Translations under genes and position numbers: made by a program
Assembly (NCBI GenBank): GCA_020724805.1
Contig: DYGI01000001.1
Location: 8,934 to 72,933 of the forward strand
Reading direction: 5' to 3'
Length of the DNA stretch: 64,000 bases
Origin: Candidatus Microgenomatus sp.
GTDB taxonomy: Bacteria; Patescibacteriota; Minisyncoccia; UBA6257; GWB1-50-10
In this document: positions 1,935 through 45,326 of the stretch, piece after piece
Layout: each line of letters starts with the position of its first letter
Position numbering within the stretch: the stretch's first letter is position 1
The notes under the pieces: generated by a model
Told to the model about the DNA's origin: nothing
The model's database searches: none
What the model saw: the letters and a program-made list of their open reading frames with translations, nothing else

Positions 1935-3385
1935 TTCACGAAATACCGTTTTTTCATCTCTTCCTCCAATCCGCTTTCGAACTCCTCCTTTTTTTCTCGC
2001 GCCGCGCGCGCAAGCGATTCCAATTCCTCTTCTTTAAGACCCGCAAGTTCTTTCACGCGCGGCTCAAGATATTCCTTAGTATTTCGTTTAGGGTCATCAA
2101 GCACCTCTTCCAACAACACGCCGAGTATCTTTCCTATCTTCGGCCCGGGTTCCATCCCTAATATTTTCATCACCTCATCCCCTTTCACCGCGAGCATTTT
2201 CGGGTGTATCGGGTCTTTCTTCACCTTCTCCATCATAAAAAGGAGGTGGCGAAGCTTGTAGGGGAACGCTTTGGGCACTCCCGAACCTATGCGGTCTCCC
2301 TCGCGCACCTTCAAAAGGTCATCGATGTATTCCGGCCCCACGCGCGCGATAAAGCGCCGCACACCTGCTTCCGAAACCTCACCCACGTTGTAGTAAAAAA
2401 GGTGATGGCGCACGAGATGCACCACGCGCTCGGCCACATCCTTGCCAAACCTCAGCCTGTCCATAATGATGGCGGCCATCTTCGCACCCACCACTTCGTG
2501 GTTGTAAAAAGTGGAGTCCGGTCCGTCCCCGCGCTTTGTTTTGGGCTTGCCCACATCATGGAGGAGCGAGGCAAGACGCACCTCAAAGGAATATCCTTTC
2601 TCCGCCGCATAGTGGAGTGCCCGCACATTGTGGTCAAACACGGTGTAAATATGATGTTTGTTCTGGCCACACCCTATGCCTTCGCGCAGTTCGGGTACTA
2701 CGAATTTCAAAAGGCCTAAATCCTCCATTGCGACCACGCCTTCCGCCGCACGCGGACTCATTATCAATTTCACGAATTCGTCCCGAATGCGCTCCTTCGC
2801 TATTGCCTCAAGAAGACTTGCGTGATGTATGACTGCTTTTTTGGTATTTTCCTCAATTTCAAATCCGAGTTCCGTGGCGAGACGTACCGCGCGCATCAAA
2901 CGAAGCGCATCCTCTTCAAAGCGCGCTTTGGGATTGCCCACGGTGCGAATCGTTTTTTTCTTAAGATCCGCGACGCCTTCATGCGGGTCAACAATATCTC
3001 TGGAAATGTTCGCGGCGATGGCGTTCACGGTAAAATCGCGACGCGAGAGATCTTCCTCGATGGTCTTCGCAAACTTTACTTCGTCGGGATGCCGAAAATC
3101 GGTGTAGCGACCTTCGATACGGAACGTGGTAACCTCCACGATTTTCAGCGTTGGGTCATCCGATTCCGTCTTCACGCCGACCGTGCCGAACGTATTTTCA
3201 TACACGCTTTCGGGAAAAAGCTCCTGCACCTTGTCAGGCGTGGCGTCGGTTGCCACATCCCAGTCTTTGGGCGCGCGCTTCAAGAGAAGATCTCGGAGGC
3301 ACCCGCCCACCAGAAAGGCCTGGTGCCCATTTTTTTTAAGCGTCTCCGCGATATTCCTCACTTCTTGCGGAATAGCAAATTTCAT
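1931..3385 (-). CDS. cca: CCA-adding tRNA nucleotidyltransferase with HD domain
   Basis: Track ORF 1931..3556 overlaps tRNA-Arg. Start moved to the internal ATG (MKFAIPQ...); poly(A) polymerase head-domain motifs (GGCLRDLLL, DWDVAT) and C-terminal HD (HD...H) region. Confidence 0.8.
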   Translation of the reverse strand: MKFAIPQEVRNIAETLKKNGHQAFLVGGCLRDLLLKRAPKDWDVATDATPDKVQELFPESVYENTFGTVGVKTESDDPTLKIVEVTTFRIEGRYTDFRHPDEVKFAKTIEEDLSRRDFTVNAIAANISRDIVDPHEGVADLKKKTIRTVGNPKARFEEDALRLMRAVRLATELGFEIEENTKKAVIHHASLLEAIAKERIRDEFVKLIMSPRAAEGVVAMEDLGLLKFVVPELREGIGCGQNKHHIYTVFDHNVRALHYAAEKGYSFEVRLASLLHDVGKPKTKRGDGPDSTFYNHEVVGAKMAAIIMDRLRFGKDVAERVVHLVRHHLFYYNVGEVSEAGVRRFIARVGPEYIDDLLKVREGDRIGSGVPKAFPYKLRHLLFMMEKVKKDPIHPKMLAVKGDEVMKILGMEPGPKIGKILGVLLEEVLDDPKRNTKEYLEPRVKELAGLKEEELESLARAAREKKEEFESGLEEEMKKRYFVK

Positions 3386-3390
3386 ATATG

Positions 3391-3465
3391 TGGTGCCCTC
3401 GGAGGGATTCGAACCCCCAATAACTGCTTCGAAGGCAGTCGTGATATCCATTTCACTACGAGGGC
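3391..3465 (-). tRNA. tRNA-Arg (anticodon UCG), CCA encoded
   Basis: Acceptor GCCCTCG/CGAGGGC, anticodon loop CUUCGAA, T-loop TTCGAAT, 3' CCA present. Confidence 0.75.
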
Positions 3466-3539
3466 CTAAATCGATTGTATCCTCAAAAATCCCGGTTCGC
3501 AAAAGAAAAAGCCGCACCCCCTCGATGCGGCCGAAATCT

Positions 3540-3713: not shown

Positions 3714-3772
3714 AACACGGCTCCTTATGTGGTTGAACTAACATAAGTATATCGGATATACTTTTTTCGTTC

Positions 3773-3844
3773 CGCCCCTAGCTCAACTGGCAGAGCAGCT
3801 CCCTCTTAAGGAGAAGGTTCTGGGTTCGACCCCCAGGGGGCGGA
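3773..3844 (+). tRNA. tRNA-Lys (anticodon CUU), no encoded CCA
   Basis: Acceptor CCGCCCC/GGGGCGG, anticodon loop CUCUUAA (G27:A43 mismatch in stem), T-loop TTCGACC. Confidence 0.7.
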
Positions 3845-4008
3845 CAACAAAGTTGGACGACCGTAGCTCTGCGCCTGCGCGCCGAGCGACCTTGGGGTCG
3901 AACGTCGGAGCATATGCGGCGCAGCAGCGCTGCACGCGAGACGGTGCCCAGTCCGAAGGCGCGTGACGGCGCGCCGAGAGACGCGGGAGACCCCCAGGGG
4001 GCGGACAA
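3845..4008 (+). repeat. tRNA-flanking insert, family B (Lys copy), with direct repeat of tRNA 3' end
   Basis: A ~145-bp GC-rich insert follows tRNA-Lys. A 20-nt exact copy of the tRNA 3' end (gacccccagggggcggacaa) sits at 3989-4008. The tRNA-Leu insert at 45201-45326 has the same architecture and a similar start. Confidence 0.45.
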
Positions 4009-4202
4009 TTTGAAGAAAATCGTTTATAAAACCGGCCTACGGCACCGAGGCGGTTATGTCGGTAGAGTGCGCCCCACCGAGCGCATCTATTCTATCGCGG
4101 TCATTCGCTTTCAGCTCACGACCTGGGCCGATAATATGCCTCTTTTTGGTGATAAGTCGCGTTAGCGCCACAAAAAGATACGAGGTATAATATCCGCCAT
4201 TC

Positions 4203-6332
4203 ATGGCTTCCATCGCATTTGAAACGGCACTGGAAGACATTAGTGGTATTGCGCCGCGCTATCTTACGGCATTCAAACGTCTGAATATAAAAACTGTCCG
4301 CGATCTCCTCTATCATTTCCCCTCCCGATACGAGGACTATTCGCACGTGTATCGCATCGCAGAACTCGAGCCGGGACAAGATGCAACCATCCAAGGTGAG
4401 ATATATGAAGTAACGGGCCGAAAAACGTGGCGACGCACGTACTATGTGACCGAAGCAGTTATCACGGACGGTGAAGATTCCATTCGCGCGGTGTGGTGGA
4501 ATCAGCCCTATCTCAGAAATACCCTTCGCCACGGCGCACGCGTCAACATTTCGGGAAAAGTGTCCGTGAACGAGCGGGGCGAGTTATTTTTCTCGAACCC
4601 CGCGTTCGAATTCATCCATGCGCACGAAGAAGCGCACGATGCAACGCATACCGCCCGTATTGTCCCTATCTATCGCGAAACTCACGGCCTCACTTCAAAA
4701 GGCATTCGTTATATCCTTCGACCAATCCTTGAAAATGTTGATGTTGAAGAGTTCCTTCCCGAAGCGGTTTTGGAACGAGAGGGATTCCCGACGCTTCGAC
4801 CCGCGCTTCACGCGGTGCATTTCCCCGATGAACTCGCTGAAACGGAAGCGGCGAAGCGTCGGTTTGCATTTGAGGACCTTTTTCTCCTTGAGCTCACCAA
4901 TGCGCGTGAACGGGCGCGCCTTTCAAAAGAAAGTGCGCTTTCTGTTCCTTTTCCGGCTGCGCGTCGGAAAAAAATCATTTCATCACTCCCTTTTGCACTC
5001 ACCGATTCACAGGCGCATGCGCTCGATGAAATACTCGAAGACATCGCAAAGCCGCATCCGATGAACCGCCTTCTCCAAGGAGATGTGGGGTCCGGTAAAA
5101 CCATTGTAGCGGGTATCGCTGCTATGGCGGCGGGGGAAGCAAAATATCAAACCGCCATTATGGCGCCCACCGAAATACTCGCCTATCAGCATTACGAAAC
5201 TTTCAAGAAATTTTTTTCTGACTTCGCGGGAGGTATCGCGCTCCTCACGGGGAGCGCCGCGCGCATCTTTCTTGGCGAAGGACTCGAGCGCGAGACGAAA
5301 AAAGCTGAACTTCATAGCGCAATCCGTGCCGGCAGAATCTCTATCGTTATAGGCACCCATGCGCTCATCGAGAAAAAAGTAACGCTCCCTCACCTCGCCC
5401 TTGTGGTCATCGACGAACAACATCGATTCGGCGTGGAACAGAGAGCCGCGCTCATGCGCGAAGACGCAGTTCCACATTTTTTGAGCATGTCAGCAACGCC
5501 GATTCCTCGCACGCTCGCGCTCACCATTTTCGGCAACTTGAATGTCTCGCAAATCACCGAACTCCCCAAGGACCGCAAGGAAATAATTACGAAAGTAGTC
5601 GCGCCCGAAAACCGCTTAAAGGCCTATGCGTTCATCAAGGAATTTGTGGAAAAAGGGAGGCAGGCCTTCGTCATATGCCCGCGCATCATCCCTTCCAATA
5701 TCGAACCGGGGGGGATGCTCGATGCCGCCACGCTTGCGCGACTGGATATGAAGAACGTAACAGAGGAATATGAAAAACTTTCAAAAAAAATATTCCCCGA
5801 TCTTTCGGTCGCGATGCTCCATAGAAAGTTGAAGCCGAAGGAAAAAGCGAGCGTGATGAAGGCTTTCTCGGACGGAAAAATCGACATTTTGGTATCCACA
5901 TCCGTCATTGAGGTAGGCGTCGACGTGCCGAATGCGACCATAATGATGGTGGAAAGCGCCGAACGGTTCGGCCTTGCACAGCTCTATCAGTTCCGCGGAC
6001 GCGTCGGCCGCGGTGCCCATCAATCTTTTTGCCTTCTTTTCACGGAATCCACCTCGGAAGCGACGCAAAAACGCCTGGAAGCAGTAGCGCGCGCGAAAAA
6101 CGGTTTTGAGCTTGCCGAAGAGGATCTGAAACTCCGCGGACCAGGTGAATTTTTGGGCACCATCCAAACCGGCATGCCCGATATCGCGATGAAGGCGCTC
6201 CAACACCCCACACTTATTCCTAAAGCGCGTTCCGCCGCAGGGGAACTTTTAAAGAAGGGGGGCGATTACTGCCTCTCTCCACTCCTCCAAAATAAGCTTG
6301 TGGCGTTCAAAAAACAGATTCATTGGGAATAG
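4203..6332 (+). CDS. recG: ATP-dependent DNA helicase RecG
   Basis: 709 aa; wedge domain, Walker A GDVGSGKT, DEQH box, helicase C motifs; TATAAT-like box ~18 bp upstream. Confidence 0.9.
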   Translation: MASIAFETALEDISGIAPRYLTAFKRLNIKTVRDLLYHFPSRYEDYSHVYRIAELEPGQDATIQGEIYEVTGRKTWRRTYYVTEAVITDGEDSIRAVWWNQPYLRNTLRHGARVNISGKVSVNERGELFFSNPAFEFIHAHEEAHDATHTARIVPIYRETHGLTSKGIRYILRPILENVDVEEFLPEAVLEREGFPTLRPALHAVHFPDELAETEAAKRRFAFEDLFLLELTNARERARLSKESALSVPFPAARRKKIISSLPFALTDSQAHALDEILEDIAKPHPMNRLLQGDVGSGKTIVAGIAAMAAGEAKYQTAIMAPTEILAYQHYETFKKFFSDFAGGIALLTGSAARIFLGEGLERETKKAELHSAIRAGRISIVIGTHALIEKKVTLPHLALVVIDEQHRFGVEQRAALMREDAVPHFLSMSATPIPRTLALTIFGNLNVSQITELPKDRKEIITKVVAPENRLKAYAFIKEFVEKGRQAFVICPRIIPSNIEPGGMLDAATLARLDMKNVTEEYEKLSKKIFPDLSVAMLHRKLKPKEKASVMKAFSDGKIDILVSTSVIEVGVDVPNATIMMVESAERFGLAQLYQFRGRVGRGAHQSFCLLFTESTSEATQKRLEAVARAKNGFELAEEDLKLRGPGEFLGTIQTGMPDIAMKALQHPTLIPKARSAAGELLKKGGDYCLSPLLQNKLVAFKKQIHWE

Positions 6333-7447: not shown

Positions 7448-8587
7448 TTAACGCACTTCCGCACCAAACCTTTTCTTCGTTTCTTCCGTTATTTTTTCCT
7501 GAATCGGGGCTACTTCCTCCGTGGTGAGCGTCCGTTCGTTCGAGCGATACACCGTACGGTAGGTGTAACTTATCTTACCACTCCCGAACTTCCTTTCGTC
7601 CTCATACTTGTCGAGAAGAGCGACTTCTTCCACCAAATCGCCGCCAATATCACGGATGAGGTCAAAATAATCGTTCGGCACGAAGTTTCTATCTACCACG
7701 AACGAAATGTCGCGCGTGATAGGAGGAAATTTACTCACCTCTTTGAATTCGGTTCCCAATTTTAACTGGCGCGTAACGCGTGGGTCCTCGGACCACAAAA
7801 GCCGGATGTCGGGGAGATTCATGCTCGCAATTGCGAGACGCTCCAATCCGAATCCGAACGCCCACCCGGTGTAATTCGAAGAATCCACGCCAAGTTTTTC
7901 CAAAACGCTCCCCTTCACCACGCCGCACCCTACAACCTCCACCCATTTCCCTTTAATCTCCACCTCCATCTCGCGCGAAGGATCGGTGTAAGGGAACGTG
8001 TCGGGGTTCAAGCGGTATTTGACGTCAGGCCCGAACACCGCGGTTGCAATAGCGCCAAGCGATTCTTCAAGTTCCTTCACGCCGATGGTCTTTATCGCCT
8101 TCGGTGCAAGATACCACCCGTCAATCTGGTGGAACACGTTCATGTGGTTCCGATCTATCTCGTCCCGGCGATATACCTTCCCAAAACTGAAACACCCTAC
8201 CGGTTCATTCGCCGCAATGCGCCGCTTTATCTCCTCGTCCAAGAGATAGTAGTACCACATCACGGTGGTATGAGTCCGAAGAATATTCTTGTCATCCACG
8301 TAGTATGTGTCCGAGCGACTTCGCGCCGGGTGGTCCGCAGGAAAATCGAAAAGATCGAAACTTACCGACGCGGGCACTATTTCCGGCGTTTTGATGACAT
8401 CCAAATCCTTGAAATACGGGCTCGCGAGTATGCGCTTCACGATCTCCGCAATGGGGTTCCCTTCTTTTCGCGAAAGGTCCGGCATCGCAAGAAAACGTTG
8501 GAGGCGCAATCCGTCCGGATCCGTTCGTCTCTGAAGTTTCTCGCGCAATATTTTTTCTTCCGGAGAATCGATGTGTATTTCTTTCAT
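7448..8587 (-). CDS. pheS: phenylalanine--tRNA ligase alpha subunit
   Basis: 379 aa; class II aaRS motifs (FPADHPAR, DTFY) and PheS catalytic core; pheT is not adjacent. Confidence 0.85.
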   Translation of the reverse strand: MKEIHIDSPEEKILREKLQRRTDPDGLRLQRFLAMPDLSRKEGNPIAEIVKRILASPYFKDLDVIKTPEIVPASVSFDLFDFPADHPARSRSDTYYVDDKNILRTHTTVMWYYYLLDEEIKRRIAANEPVGCFSFGKVYRRDEIDRNHMNVFHQIDGWYLAPKAIKTIGVKELEESLGAIATAVFGPDVKYRLNPDTFPYTDPSREMEVEIKGKWVEVVGCGVVKGSVLEKLGVDSSNYTGWAFGFGLERLAIASMNLPDIRLLWSEDPRVTRQLKLGTEFKEVSKFPPITRDISFVVDRNFVPNDYFDLIRDIGGDLVEEVALLDKYEDERKFGSGKISYTYRTVYRSNERTLTTEEVAPIQEKITEETKKRFGAEVR

Positions 8588-39688: not shown

Positions 39689-39775
39689 CGGAGGCGGAAG
39701 GATTCGAACCTTCGAGGGGATTGCTCCCCTAACATCTTAGCAGGATGCTGCCTTAAGCCACTCGGCCACGCCTCC
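39689..39775 (-). tRNA. tRNA-Ser (anticodon GCU), long variable arm
   Basis: Acceptor GGAGGCG/CGCCTCC, anticodon loop CUGCUAA, 17-nt variable arm, T-loop TTCGAAT. Confidence 0.8.
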
Positions 39776-45117: not shown

Positions 45118-45200
45118 GTCCGGGTGGCGGAATGGTATACGCAGGGGACTTAAAATCCCCGGCTCGAAAGGGCTTGTGGGTTCGACTCCCACCCCGGACA
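45118..45200 (+). tRNA. tRNA-Leu (anticodon UAA), long variable arm
   Basis: Acceptor GTCCGGG/CCCGGAC, anticodon loop CUUAAAA, 15-nt variable arm, T-loop TTCGACT. Confidence 0.8.
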
Positions 45201-45326
45201 CAAAGTGTCGGTACAATAAAGAAGTTGAAGCCAACTCGCACGCTCGCGAGCGAGGAAAAGCGCGAGTGGCCGGCGACGGAGGAGGCGCGTATGCGCTGGG
45301 GGAGGAGGACTCCCACCCCGGACACA
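45201..45326 (+). repeat. tRNA-flanking insert, family B (Leu copy), with direct repeat of tRNA 3' end
   Basis: A ~105-bp GC-rich insert, then a 19-nt exact copy of the tRNA-Leu 3' end (gactcccaccccggacaca) at 45308-45326. Confidence 0.45.

Follow-up and report, generated by a model that had tools for sequence, protein, structure and literature searches.

Among the closest described counterparts of the elements considered here are the genomic islands and prophages of the T-loop-class tyrosine integrases, which likewise lie 3' of an intact tRNA or tmRNA gene, have at their borders a direct repeat of that gene that spans its T-loop and 3' end, and occur in arrays at a single tRNA. The present analysis concerns an insert of this general aspect behind the tRNA-Lys gene at 3772–3844 of a 64-kb stretch of DNA (hereafter the window; contig DYGI01000001.1 of Candidatus Microgenomatus sp.), together with its counterparts behind other tRNA genes of the window and of other Patescibacteria, also termed the candidate phyla radiation (CPR). 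Unlike the integrase islands, these elements are only 110–200 nucleotides (nt) long, carry no integrase, present one core family at many different tRNAs, and combine inverted arms matched to their target with a structure of the RNA type on the sense strand. Further, the attP core of an integrase island lineage binds that lineage to a single tRNA identity, whereas the version of the element termed family B is found at many amino-acid families and at tmRNA. We regard it as fairly probable that the tRNA-Lys insert belongs to a Patescibacteria-specific superfamily of small, structured, non-autonomous elements that are targeted to the 3' ends of tRNA and tmRNA genes and selected as RNA. The superfamily is apparently undescribed and, within the coverage of Rfam and of the literature, we rate its members as falling outside the known classes.

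Miniature inverted-repeat transposable elements (MITEs) and other small repeats, such as the Rickettsia palindromic elements and the Correia elements, are comparably small, non-coding, multi-copy and structured, are tolerated in streamlined genomes, and resemble the present elements in probably being mobilized in trans. MITEs have fixed inverted repeats shared with an insertion sequence (IS) and generate a short duplication; in contrast, the elements are strictly specific for tRNA 3' ends and oriented, their duplication of 16–24 nt is derived from the target, their arms are also target-derived and change with the tRNA, and no parent IS is known. The attC sites of integrons and the attP(+) site of CTX-phi are similar in having a one-strand structure with a stem that mimics a duplex target, and in their cassette-like arrays and replacement at a fixed site. 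The elements differ from both in targeting the tRNA T-loop, in conserving sequence as well as structure, and in having neither cargo open reading frames (ORFs) nor a demonstrated IntI or Xer context; the attC core sites RYYYAAC/GTTRRRY fit TTCGAAC/GTTCGAA at only 5 of 7 positions, and neither intI nor cassette ORFs were detected in the window or in the neighborhoods of the elements. A long target duplication and arrays growing at a single site are shared with casposons and Cas1-type CRISPR integration, the duplication being 14–15 bp in casposons, which use tRNA 3' ends in some archaea, and the whole repeat in CRISPR. Unlike casposons, the elements lack Cas1, fixed terminal inverted repeats and protein genes, are approximately 100 times smaller, and have the longer duplication of 16–24 nt. 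The palindrome-associated elements of the IS200/IS605 type form strand-specific hairpins and insert 3' of a fixed motif of 4–5 nt without target duplication. For the present elements the comparison points both ways: they have a sense-strand structure and ..(T/C)GAA directly before every core, yet the tRNAs that carry them are on either strand of a single replichore. They do show a duplication of 16–24 nt, and no Y1 transposase (TnpA) was found in the window or in the element neighborhoods.

Among RNAs, the tRNA-like molecules cut by RNases P and Z (mascRNA, viral tRNA-like structures and the corresponding domain of tmRNA) display an imitation of the acceptor/T-arm minihelix at RNA ends, and the elements, like them, probably exploit tRNA processing enzymes. 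Unlike these RNAs, the imitation in the elements copies the 3' strand of the neighboring tRNA, and a three-way junction of 90 nt stands in place of the T-loop. Another parallel is offered by the P1/P10 guide of group I introns, in that the guide-like segment of family B complements both sides of the insertion point, and CPR genomes are rich in tRNA introns. Unlike group I introns, the elements do not lie in the anticodon loop, are too small, have no match to RF00028, and leave the upstream tRNA complete and unspliced. The nearest literature that we found deals with group I introns in the anticodon loops of Patescibacteria tRNA genes (PMC13011429), which are a different thing, and with phage theta ribozymes, without describing tRNA 3' elements; within the coverage of the full texts searched, the element itself is undescribed.

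The tRNA-Lys insert and the anatomy of the elements

The sequence GACCCCCAGGGGGCGGACAA is present exactly twice in the window, at 3828–3847 and 3989–4008 of the plus strand, and corresponds to tRNA-Lys(CTT) from G57 of the T-loop to the discriminator (positions 57–73) followed by CAA. It found no match in 100 dinucleotide shuffles, which bears out the 20-nt exact copy of the tRNA 3' end to which an earlier note, made from the letters of the window alone, had drawn attention. The same note described the material between the two copies as a GC-rich, non-coding insert of 145 bp: the length needs correction to 141 nt (3848–3988), and the character stands, given a G+C content of 70% (against 52.7% for the window) and overlapping ORFs in which no Pfam family was found. 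The gene itself is intact and does not encode CCA (ARAGORN; Rfam tRNA score 58.8 bits), and a consensus scan places a promoter-like site, TTGAAC-18-TATACT, at 3733–3762 on the same strand, about 10 nt 5' of it. As a simple scan called no terminator-like site between the gene and the element, the two are likely to be co-transcribed, judging from the sequence. Chance or an assembly artefact is ruled out as a source of the repeats by the shuffles together with the recurrence at six loci of the window and in about 100 genomes. A coding role for the inserts was likewise rejected, given the absence of Pfam families and the nature of their variable parts, which are compensating hairpins with indels.

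Downstream of the first copy, the sequence turns around into a segment CAAAGTTGGACGACCGTA (3848–3865) which, by reading, appears to be a degenerate anti-acceptor, with 7 of 10 positions complementary to GGCGGACAA. It is followed by the hairpin GCTCTGCGCCTGCGCGCCGAGC (3866–3887), whose shape and position agree with the conserved P0 hairpin of other members. The adjoining anti-T segment CCTTGGGGTC (3890–3899) is the complement of GACCCCCAGG in the second copy, with which it forms the closing helix P1 in the minimum free energy (MFE) fold. The remainder of the insert (3900–3988) is a three-way-junction core, GAACGUCGGAG...CGAGACGGUGCCCAG...AGACGCGGGA, recognized by pattern and profile matches and by covariation, in which helices P2 (3903–3906/3940–3943) and P3 (3947–3949/3985–3987) are predicted; the fold of this core has a z-score of -3.25. 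The second copy of the repeat (3989–4008) then leads directly into the native flank, TTTGAAGAAAATCG..., which is orthologous to the flank in relatives.

The same organization recurs across the elements, which are non-coding and read on the sense strand as tRNA, spacer, often an anti-acceptor, P0, anti-T with GAAC, core, second copy and native flank. The spacer is variable and is often a perfect palindrome of an A-tract and a T-tract, the stem of which runs into the acceptor 3' strand; for the most part it is not a copy of the native flank, as a tandem-inversion model would have it. The anti-acceptor is the exact complement of positions 73–66 and extends over at least 6 nt in 30% of cognate as against 3.6% of non-cognate pairs, whereas the anti-T is the complement of positions 64–57, its match to positions 61–65 averaging 4.07 of 5 in cognate and 2.56 of 5 in non-cognate pairs. 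The P0 hairpin of family B has the consensus GCAAGCCAACUGCUUGGCUUGC. The arms are Watson–Crick complements of the tRNA 3' strand and not copies of the 5' strands, as illustrated by GCAGG against the T-stem GTGGG in locus L090 and by GGCCUA against GCUUA in L053. Non-palindromic T-loops and stems containing G-U pairs exclude direct copying of the T-stem 5' strand as the source of the anti-T. Both arms fit the tRNA about equally, at approximately 90–94% in gapped alignments, and an apparently closer tracking of the tRNA by the anti-T than by the second copy proved to be an artefact of register shifts. In family B the second copy always starts at position 57, directly after ...CGNRGG+N, even where the tRNA has A57, the corresponding position in families A and C being 53 or 54. 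It runs to the discriminator and 0–3 nt beyond, which gives a duplication of 16–24 nt.

RNAalifold applied to 87 family B cores yields a three-way junction of 24 pairs, of which 17 show compensatory changes. One pair of P2, N:N', takes all four Watson–Crick forms (CG 54, GC 16, AU 13, UA 4) with no mismatches, and the CAGN:AGN'CG pairing covaries in the same way. The invariant strands of the junction are GAACGNCGGAG, CGAGN'CGGUGCC and AGNCGNRGG. In five well-aligned conserved pairs, G-U/U-G combinations are seen 23 times and A-C/C-A combinations twice, which identifies the tRNA-sense strand as the strand that folds and points to selection on that strand as RNA or, less likely, as single-stranded DNA. 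When complete elements are folded by MFE, anti-acceptor and second copy included, an acceptor-like stem of 8–9 bp, P0, P1 and the junction follow one another. These predicted folds suggest that the element together with the second copy constitutes a mimic of the coaxial acceptor/T-arm helix of tRNA, in which P0 would stand where a tRNA has its D and anticodon arms, and the core would replace the T-loop. Cloverleaf searches with ARAGORN and RF00005 do not recognize the inserts and the second copy as tRNA.

A few loci depart from the common plan in their arms or arrangement. At L063, behind tRNA-Gln-CTG, the second copy is perfect over 22 nt and the anti-T GCAGGATGA fits another T-stem (..TCCTGC); by its sequence, this anti-T may be a relic of an earlier tRNA host. 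In L103 (minus strand) an insert of about 230 nt with the ends agagcccg...cgggctct splits the P0 of the second of two tandem elements, so that one element is nested within another. In L071 an IS30-family IS (a DDE transposase of 336 amino acids and inverted repeats of 25 nt) with two small ORFs, at approximately 2426–3483, lies between two tandem elements behind tRNA-Leu, which have different cores and a left module of 43 nt that is 95% identical. This IS has its own, unrelated inverted repeats and was rejected as a source of the elements.

Core families, phyletic distribution and site turnover

Copies of their own 3' ends are found downstream of 6 of the 18 tRNA genes in the window, namely those for Lys, Leu, Pro, Arg-GCG, Glu and Ser-GCT. 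The density of tRNA genes is itself very high, with 18 in 64 kb, several of them 0–12 nt from the next tRNA or ORF. The earlier note had pointed to a like arrangement behind tRNA-Leu, and here too it was right: tRNA-Leu(TAA) (45118–45200, plus strand) has the 19-nt repeat GACTCCCACCCCGGACACA at 45184–45202 and 45308–45326, enclosing an insert of 105 nt with 62% G+C. This element (45203–45326 including its second copy), assigned to family D, has a degenerate anti-T. The remaining four genes lie on the minus strand and have 3'-end copies of 16–18 nt beyond inserts of 130–190 nt. Behind tRNA-Glu(TTC) (39412–39484) there is a family B element at 39211–39411 with its second copy at 39220–39237. Family A elements are found behind tRNA-Pro(CGG) (922–993), at 774–920 with the second copy at 774–790, and behind tRNA-Ser(GCT) (39688–39775), at 39501–39685 with the second copy at 39501–39516. 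A further version, family A', occupies 38347–38542 behind tRNA-Arg(GCG) (38543–38615), its second copy lying at 38347–38362.

The tRNA-Lys and tRNA-Leu inserts had been taken as a single family at plus-strand tRNAs, and this part of the note does not hold. The Lys and Glu inserts align with each other through TCGAACGYCGGAG, a hairpin of 26 nt and CGAGRCGGTGCCYAG, a combination present in the window at those two places only, and a profile built from about 100 Lys-type cores matches the Glu insert (E=3e-30) and the Lys insert (E=3e-19) while leaving the Leu insert unmatched at E<=10. The Leu insert groups instead with homologous inserts behind tRNA-Asp of a related species. A Lys-type member thus stands behind the minus-strand tRNA-Glu, and strand is irrelevant because an element always takes the orientation of its tRNA. 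The similarity noted between the starts of the Lys and Leu inserts (CAAAGTTGG and CAAAGTGTCGG) is real, but it does not amount to sequence homology: each start is read as the sequence doubling back on the acceptor 3' strand of its own tRNA, of which it forms a degenerate inverted copy, and this shared start, along with the GC-richness of both inserts, is a matter of common architecture. The Pro and Ser-GCT inserts share one nearly identical family A core behind unrelated tRNAs, their homology being confined to the stretch TCGRAC...GACGTTCG, and the Arg-GCG insert has a fourth core, which recurs behind tRNA-Lys in a relative. Thus, a minimum of four core families built on one architecture are represented in the window, each co-oriented with its own tRNA, and the broader proposal that inserts tied to tRNA 3' ends and accompanied by a T-loop-to-3'-end duplication form repeated families is upheld.

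Beyond the window, one genome per species was scanned with the core pattern GAACGNCGGAG-N18-34-GAGNCGGTGCC, which recovered at least 120 loci. About 100 of the matches listed are in metagenome-assembled genomes labeled as Patescibacteria, including Saccharibacteria, Paceibacterota/Parcubacteria, Kaiser-, Taylor-, Uhr-, Komeili-, Yanofsky- and Jorgensenbacteria, and approximately 19 of the listed matches are chance matches in GC-rich coding sequence that lack the rest of the motif. Wherever a tRNA could be called within 130 nt, it lies upstream of the element and is co-oriented with it (71 of 71 of the matches listed). Further copies of family B stand behind tmRNA genes (L031, L032) or behind tRNA genes that contain group I introns. 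In L009, L011, L078 and L096 the element-carrying tRNA genes are interrupted by introns matching RF00028, implying that a single gene can host both an intron in the anticodon loop and an element at its 3' end. In the fetched loci, a sample biased toward loci with elements, 81 of 202 tRNAs (approximately 40%), representing 18 amino-acid families, have a downstream 3'-end copy. CCA is encoded by 11 of these 81 and by 31 of the other 121, and this depletion of elements at CCA-encoding tRNAs, being only marginal (p=0.051), was not adopted as a rule. In the window, four tRNA genes encode CCA, and all four lack an element.

Several element-bearing contigs are unusual in their label or upstream context. 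A few, L001, L045, L005 and L055, are titled Gammaproteobacteria, Bdellovibrionales or Draconibacterium, and their element and tRNA context is Patescibacteria-like; mis-binning or mislabeling is possible. In L040, L023 and L062 a family B element with a tRNA-type second copy has no tRNA, tmRNA or intron called upstream, where the three share the motif (A)GGTTCGAGCNTGGT..ATA.ATACACCAA and more conserved non-coding sequence. L028 (minus strand) reverses the usual pattern, in that the upstream tRNA-like sequence is degenerate and uncalled and the second copy is an intact 3' end of the tRNA-Gln type. The whole contig of L098 is a perfect palindrome centered on the spacer hairpin, with the element in both orientations, and reflects either chimeric assembly or a genuine inverted dimer.

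The further copies and the empty sites that the earlier note proposed to look for both exist. At the orthologous tRNA-Lys/recG locus, where RecG is 77–80% identical, one species has a family A' element and another a remnant of 54 nt, in place of the family B element of the window, and the sequence after the second copy is orthologous in all loci compared. A second orthologous locus is the cluster of tRNA-Ser(GCT), tRNA-Glu(TTC), a gene and tRNA-Arg(GCG). In the window its three tRNAs carry families A, B and A', respectively. L130 has family A at Ser and family B at Glu, with an empty site at Arg. L131 and L132, contigs of two sequencing runs that were taken as one species, have a different core at Ser, family B at Glu (the orthologue in L132) and family A' at Arg (the orthologue in L131). 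In L129 the Ser and Glu sites are empty and the contig stops before the Arg site, and in L133 all three sites are empty. At the empty Ser sites of L129 and L133, tRNA-Ser is 11–12 nt from tRNA-Glu, and at the empty Arg site of L133, tRNA-Arg is 4 nt from the next ATG. The tRNA-Glu element thus has orthologues in L130 and L132, and orthologous copies differ by compensatory substitutions, such as a change in P3 from GCC...GGA to GGC...GCC, which indicates that the structure has been retained since the species split. At the Ser site, L132 equals L130 through the spacer, anti-acceptor, P0 and anti-T as far as ...GATTCGAA and then continues into an unrelated core. From these sequence comparisons, the inherited part is the core, together with P0 in family B, and the arms are specific to each tRNA. 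On the whole, presence is patchy among close relatives, and decayed and internally deleted copies are common.

Origin and maintenance of the elements

Neither the elements nor the 64-kb window encode an integrase or other recombinase, a transposase or a reverse transcriptase, and all-against-all clustering of 882 neighboring ORFs uncovered no mobility gene recurring within 4 kb of the approximately 100 copies; the search for recombinases suggested by the earlier note was therefore negative both in the window and near these copies. In Rfam 15, only tRNAs reach the gathering score in the window, and nothing matches over the inserts at E<=10. Known ribozymes and introns (hammerhead, HDV-like/theta, twister, pistol, hatchet, group I and group II) gave no covariance-model match; the CUGAUGA/GAAA core of the hammerhead was also not seen by eye, and the placement of HDV/theta-type ribozymes at a tRNA end is inapplicable. 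Viral contigs of IMG/VR returned only chance matches of GC-rich coding sequence to the core, and blastn searches of GenBank phages and PLSDB plasmids returned no copies, so that a phage or plasmid origin was discarded. The cumulative GC skew of the window is monotonic, and elements stand at tRNAs of both strands, which is slight evidence against a mechanism confined to a single replication strand.

Under the reading favored here, the element is or was mobile and non-autonomous, and would depend for its movement on a trans-acting factor whose gene lies elsewhere. Insertion at the T-loop/3' end would duplicate the tRNA 3' segment in the manner of a long target-site duplication, with the result that the tRNA would never be damaged. 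Transcription from the tRNA promoter would continue through the element, on which selection would act as RNA, and under established substrate rules the RNase P and 3'-end enzymes of the host could excise the mimic from tRNA operon transcripts, which would restore the native ends of the neighboring RNAs. The target-matched arms might be generated by templated copying, or by a template switch, at the conserved T-loop and then be corrected on a hairpin template (quasi-palindrome correction). If this reading is true, a large share of the tRNA genes of Patescibacteria, a major and poorly understood bacterial group with tiny genomes, carry an unrecognized class of structured element, which would be rendered harmless by copying the tRNA 3' end and imitating the acceptor/T-arm helix. 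It would then represent a new RNA family supported by covariation, whose conserved three-way junction must have some specific binding partner or activity, and a testable system in which to study how a protein-less element is targeted, and retargeted, to what is the most highly conserved of all RNA motifs. It would also account for the GC-rich islands and the spurious fragments of tRNAs that are met with in CPR assemblies.

Several observations weigh against this reading. A mobilizing enzyme, an excised form and insertion polymorphism at the level of strains were not found, and the sequence predicted for an empty tRNA-Lys site in a strain had no match in metagenomes. The empty sites could be products of precise deletion between the direct repeats and not of recent insertion. 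Many spacers look, by sequence, like intrinsic terminators, which would limit read-through, though a simple scan called none in the window. The inherited modules, P0 and the core, are interleaved with target-matched ones, an arrangement that no simple insertion mechanism explains. Finally, in tandem arrays the better-preserved copy is sometimes the distal one: both copies are perfect in 5 arrays, the proximal is better in 4 and the distal in 2, and the idea that the newest element is always tRNA-proximal is unsupported.

The most probable of four rival explanations, while still unlikely, is that the insert is not mobile at all and represents a small RNA gene linked to tRNAs for the benefit of the host, with a mimic of the tRNA top half made for each cognate tRNA, which would act in operon processing or insulation, in quality control or as an enzyme decoy, and would have spread mainly by duplication and gene conversion. 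Such a gene would account for the compensatory changes by which structure is kept in the orthologues of three species, for the strong conservation of core sequence across CPR, for the position of elements within units of tRNAs and mRNAs that are probably co-transcribed (compare the spacings of 11–12 nt and 4 nt at the empty sites), and for the predicted folds, which imitate a minihelix. It fits poorly with the patchy presence in close relatives, with the same tRNA having different families or a swapped core, with the frequency of decayed and internally deleted copies, and with the existence of several unrelated core families on one architecture; such patchiness, decay and unrelated cores are not expected of an essential host gene.

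Somewhat more doubtful is a mobile element acting at the RNA level, either a silent intron or ribozyme of the T-loop or a guide RNA that steers its own integration by pairing with the two strands of the tRNA gene. As a silent intron, its family B anti-T with GAAC would complement the uninterrupted GUUC|GAAUCC after the fashion of a group I P1/P10 guide, and splicing from position 56 to the second copy would regenerate the same tRNA. The unbroken run of this guide-like complement over the insertion point, the single-strand structure on the sense strand, the right junction of family B fixed at 57 even in A57 tRNAs, the exchange of cores behind a constant left arm, and the degenerate upstream copy with an intact second copy in L028 are all in keeping with such an element. 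Against it, the core is far smaller than known splicing ribozymes and matches no ribozyme family, and no reverse transcriptase or nuclease partner was found. Further, the right arm of families A and C starts from 53/54 and leaves no free guide, and the first copy is normally intact, making splicing unnecessary. A further idea, unlikely but less so than the rival explanations, is that the cores serve as interchangeable RNA modules in a mobile element capable of retargeting itself, which would recognize the universally conserved T-loop of any tRNA or tmRNA gene or transcript through its anti-T/GAAC guide, insert with regeneration of the tRNA, and have its guide arms rewritten from the new target. 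Insertion could then proceed by reverse splicing of the ribozyme type or by RNA-guided or templated recombination, and no protein encoded by the element would be needed, so that the element would amount to a minimal silent intron or homing system programmed by RNA. A core that was catalytic or guide-like would imply a new principle of site-specific insertion.

It appears quite improbable that the inserts are scars of islands or prophages of T-loop-class integrases, which would have brought a replacement 3' end and then suffered an internal deletion that left the two arms flanking the att sites. The duplicated block is what such an integrase produces, as Williams reportedly set out in 2002 for the segment from the T-loop to the 3' end, and the use of tmRNA genes and the tandem arrays are also in line with this origin. 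However, it does not lead one to expect a single covarying core of about 100 nt across CPR classes and many amino-acid families, with 6 of 18 window tRNAs occupied; nor are target-matched inverted arms and a strand-specific G-U pattern expected of attP arms, and a longer, integrase-bearing version was not seen among the approximately 100 loci, nor were copies found in phages, plasmids or viral contigs.

The least credible account, and a very improbable one, is that template switches during replication at two palindromes, of which one is the TTCGAA of the T-loop and the other a hairpin downstream, gave a direct-inverted-direct triplication without dedicated machinery. The order of first copy, inverted copy and second copy has the expected topology, and hairpin-templated correction is an established mutational mechanism. 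However, the conserved, covarying core of 90 nt at the head-to-head junction in about 100 genomes and the invariant orientation are left unexplained, and the spacer after the first copy is usually not repeated after the second.

Neighboring genes and minor observations

The window is otherwise an ordinary Patescibacteria chromosome, encoding RecG, the CCA-adding enzyme, LigA, GatA, a type IV pilus, aminoacyl-tRNA synthetases and IF-2, and its nearest named relatives are Brenner- and Jorgensenbacteria. Between the second copy of the tRNA-Lys repeat and recG (4009–4202), the sequence gaaaatcgtttataaaaccgg directly after the copy resembles the conserved promoter/start region of recG in relatives, aaaatcggNtataatatNccgcc, and such a region recurs about 150 nt further on, immediately 5' of the recG ATG; this repetition may reflect a duplication around another small insert. 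In L125 an additional ORF of 147 amino acids without a Pfam family (4464–4907) lies between the tRNA-Lys insert and recG, and is not present in the window or in L126–L128. The tRNA-Lys genes at 3772 of the window and in L051, L126 and L127 have a C1-G72 pair (CCGCCC...GGGCGG), the usual first base being G1. At 7448–8587 on the minus strand, a protein of 379 amino acids has a PheS-type core fused to a C-terminal FDX-ACB domain, as is also the case in L126–L128; this is the layout of the monomeric, mitochondrial-type PheRS, unlike that of the bacterial alpha subunit.

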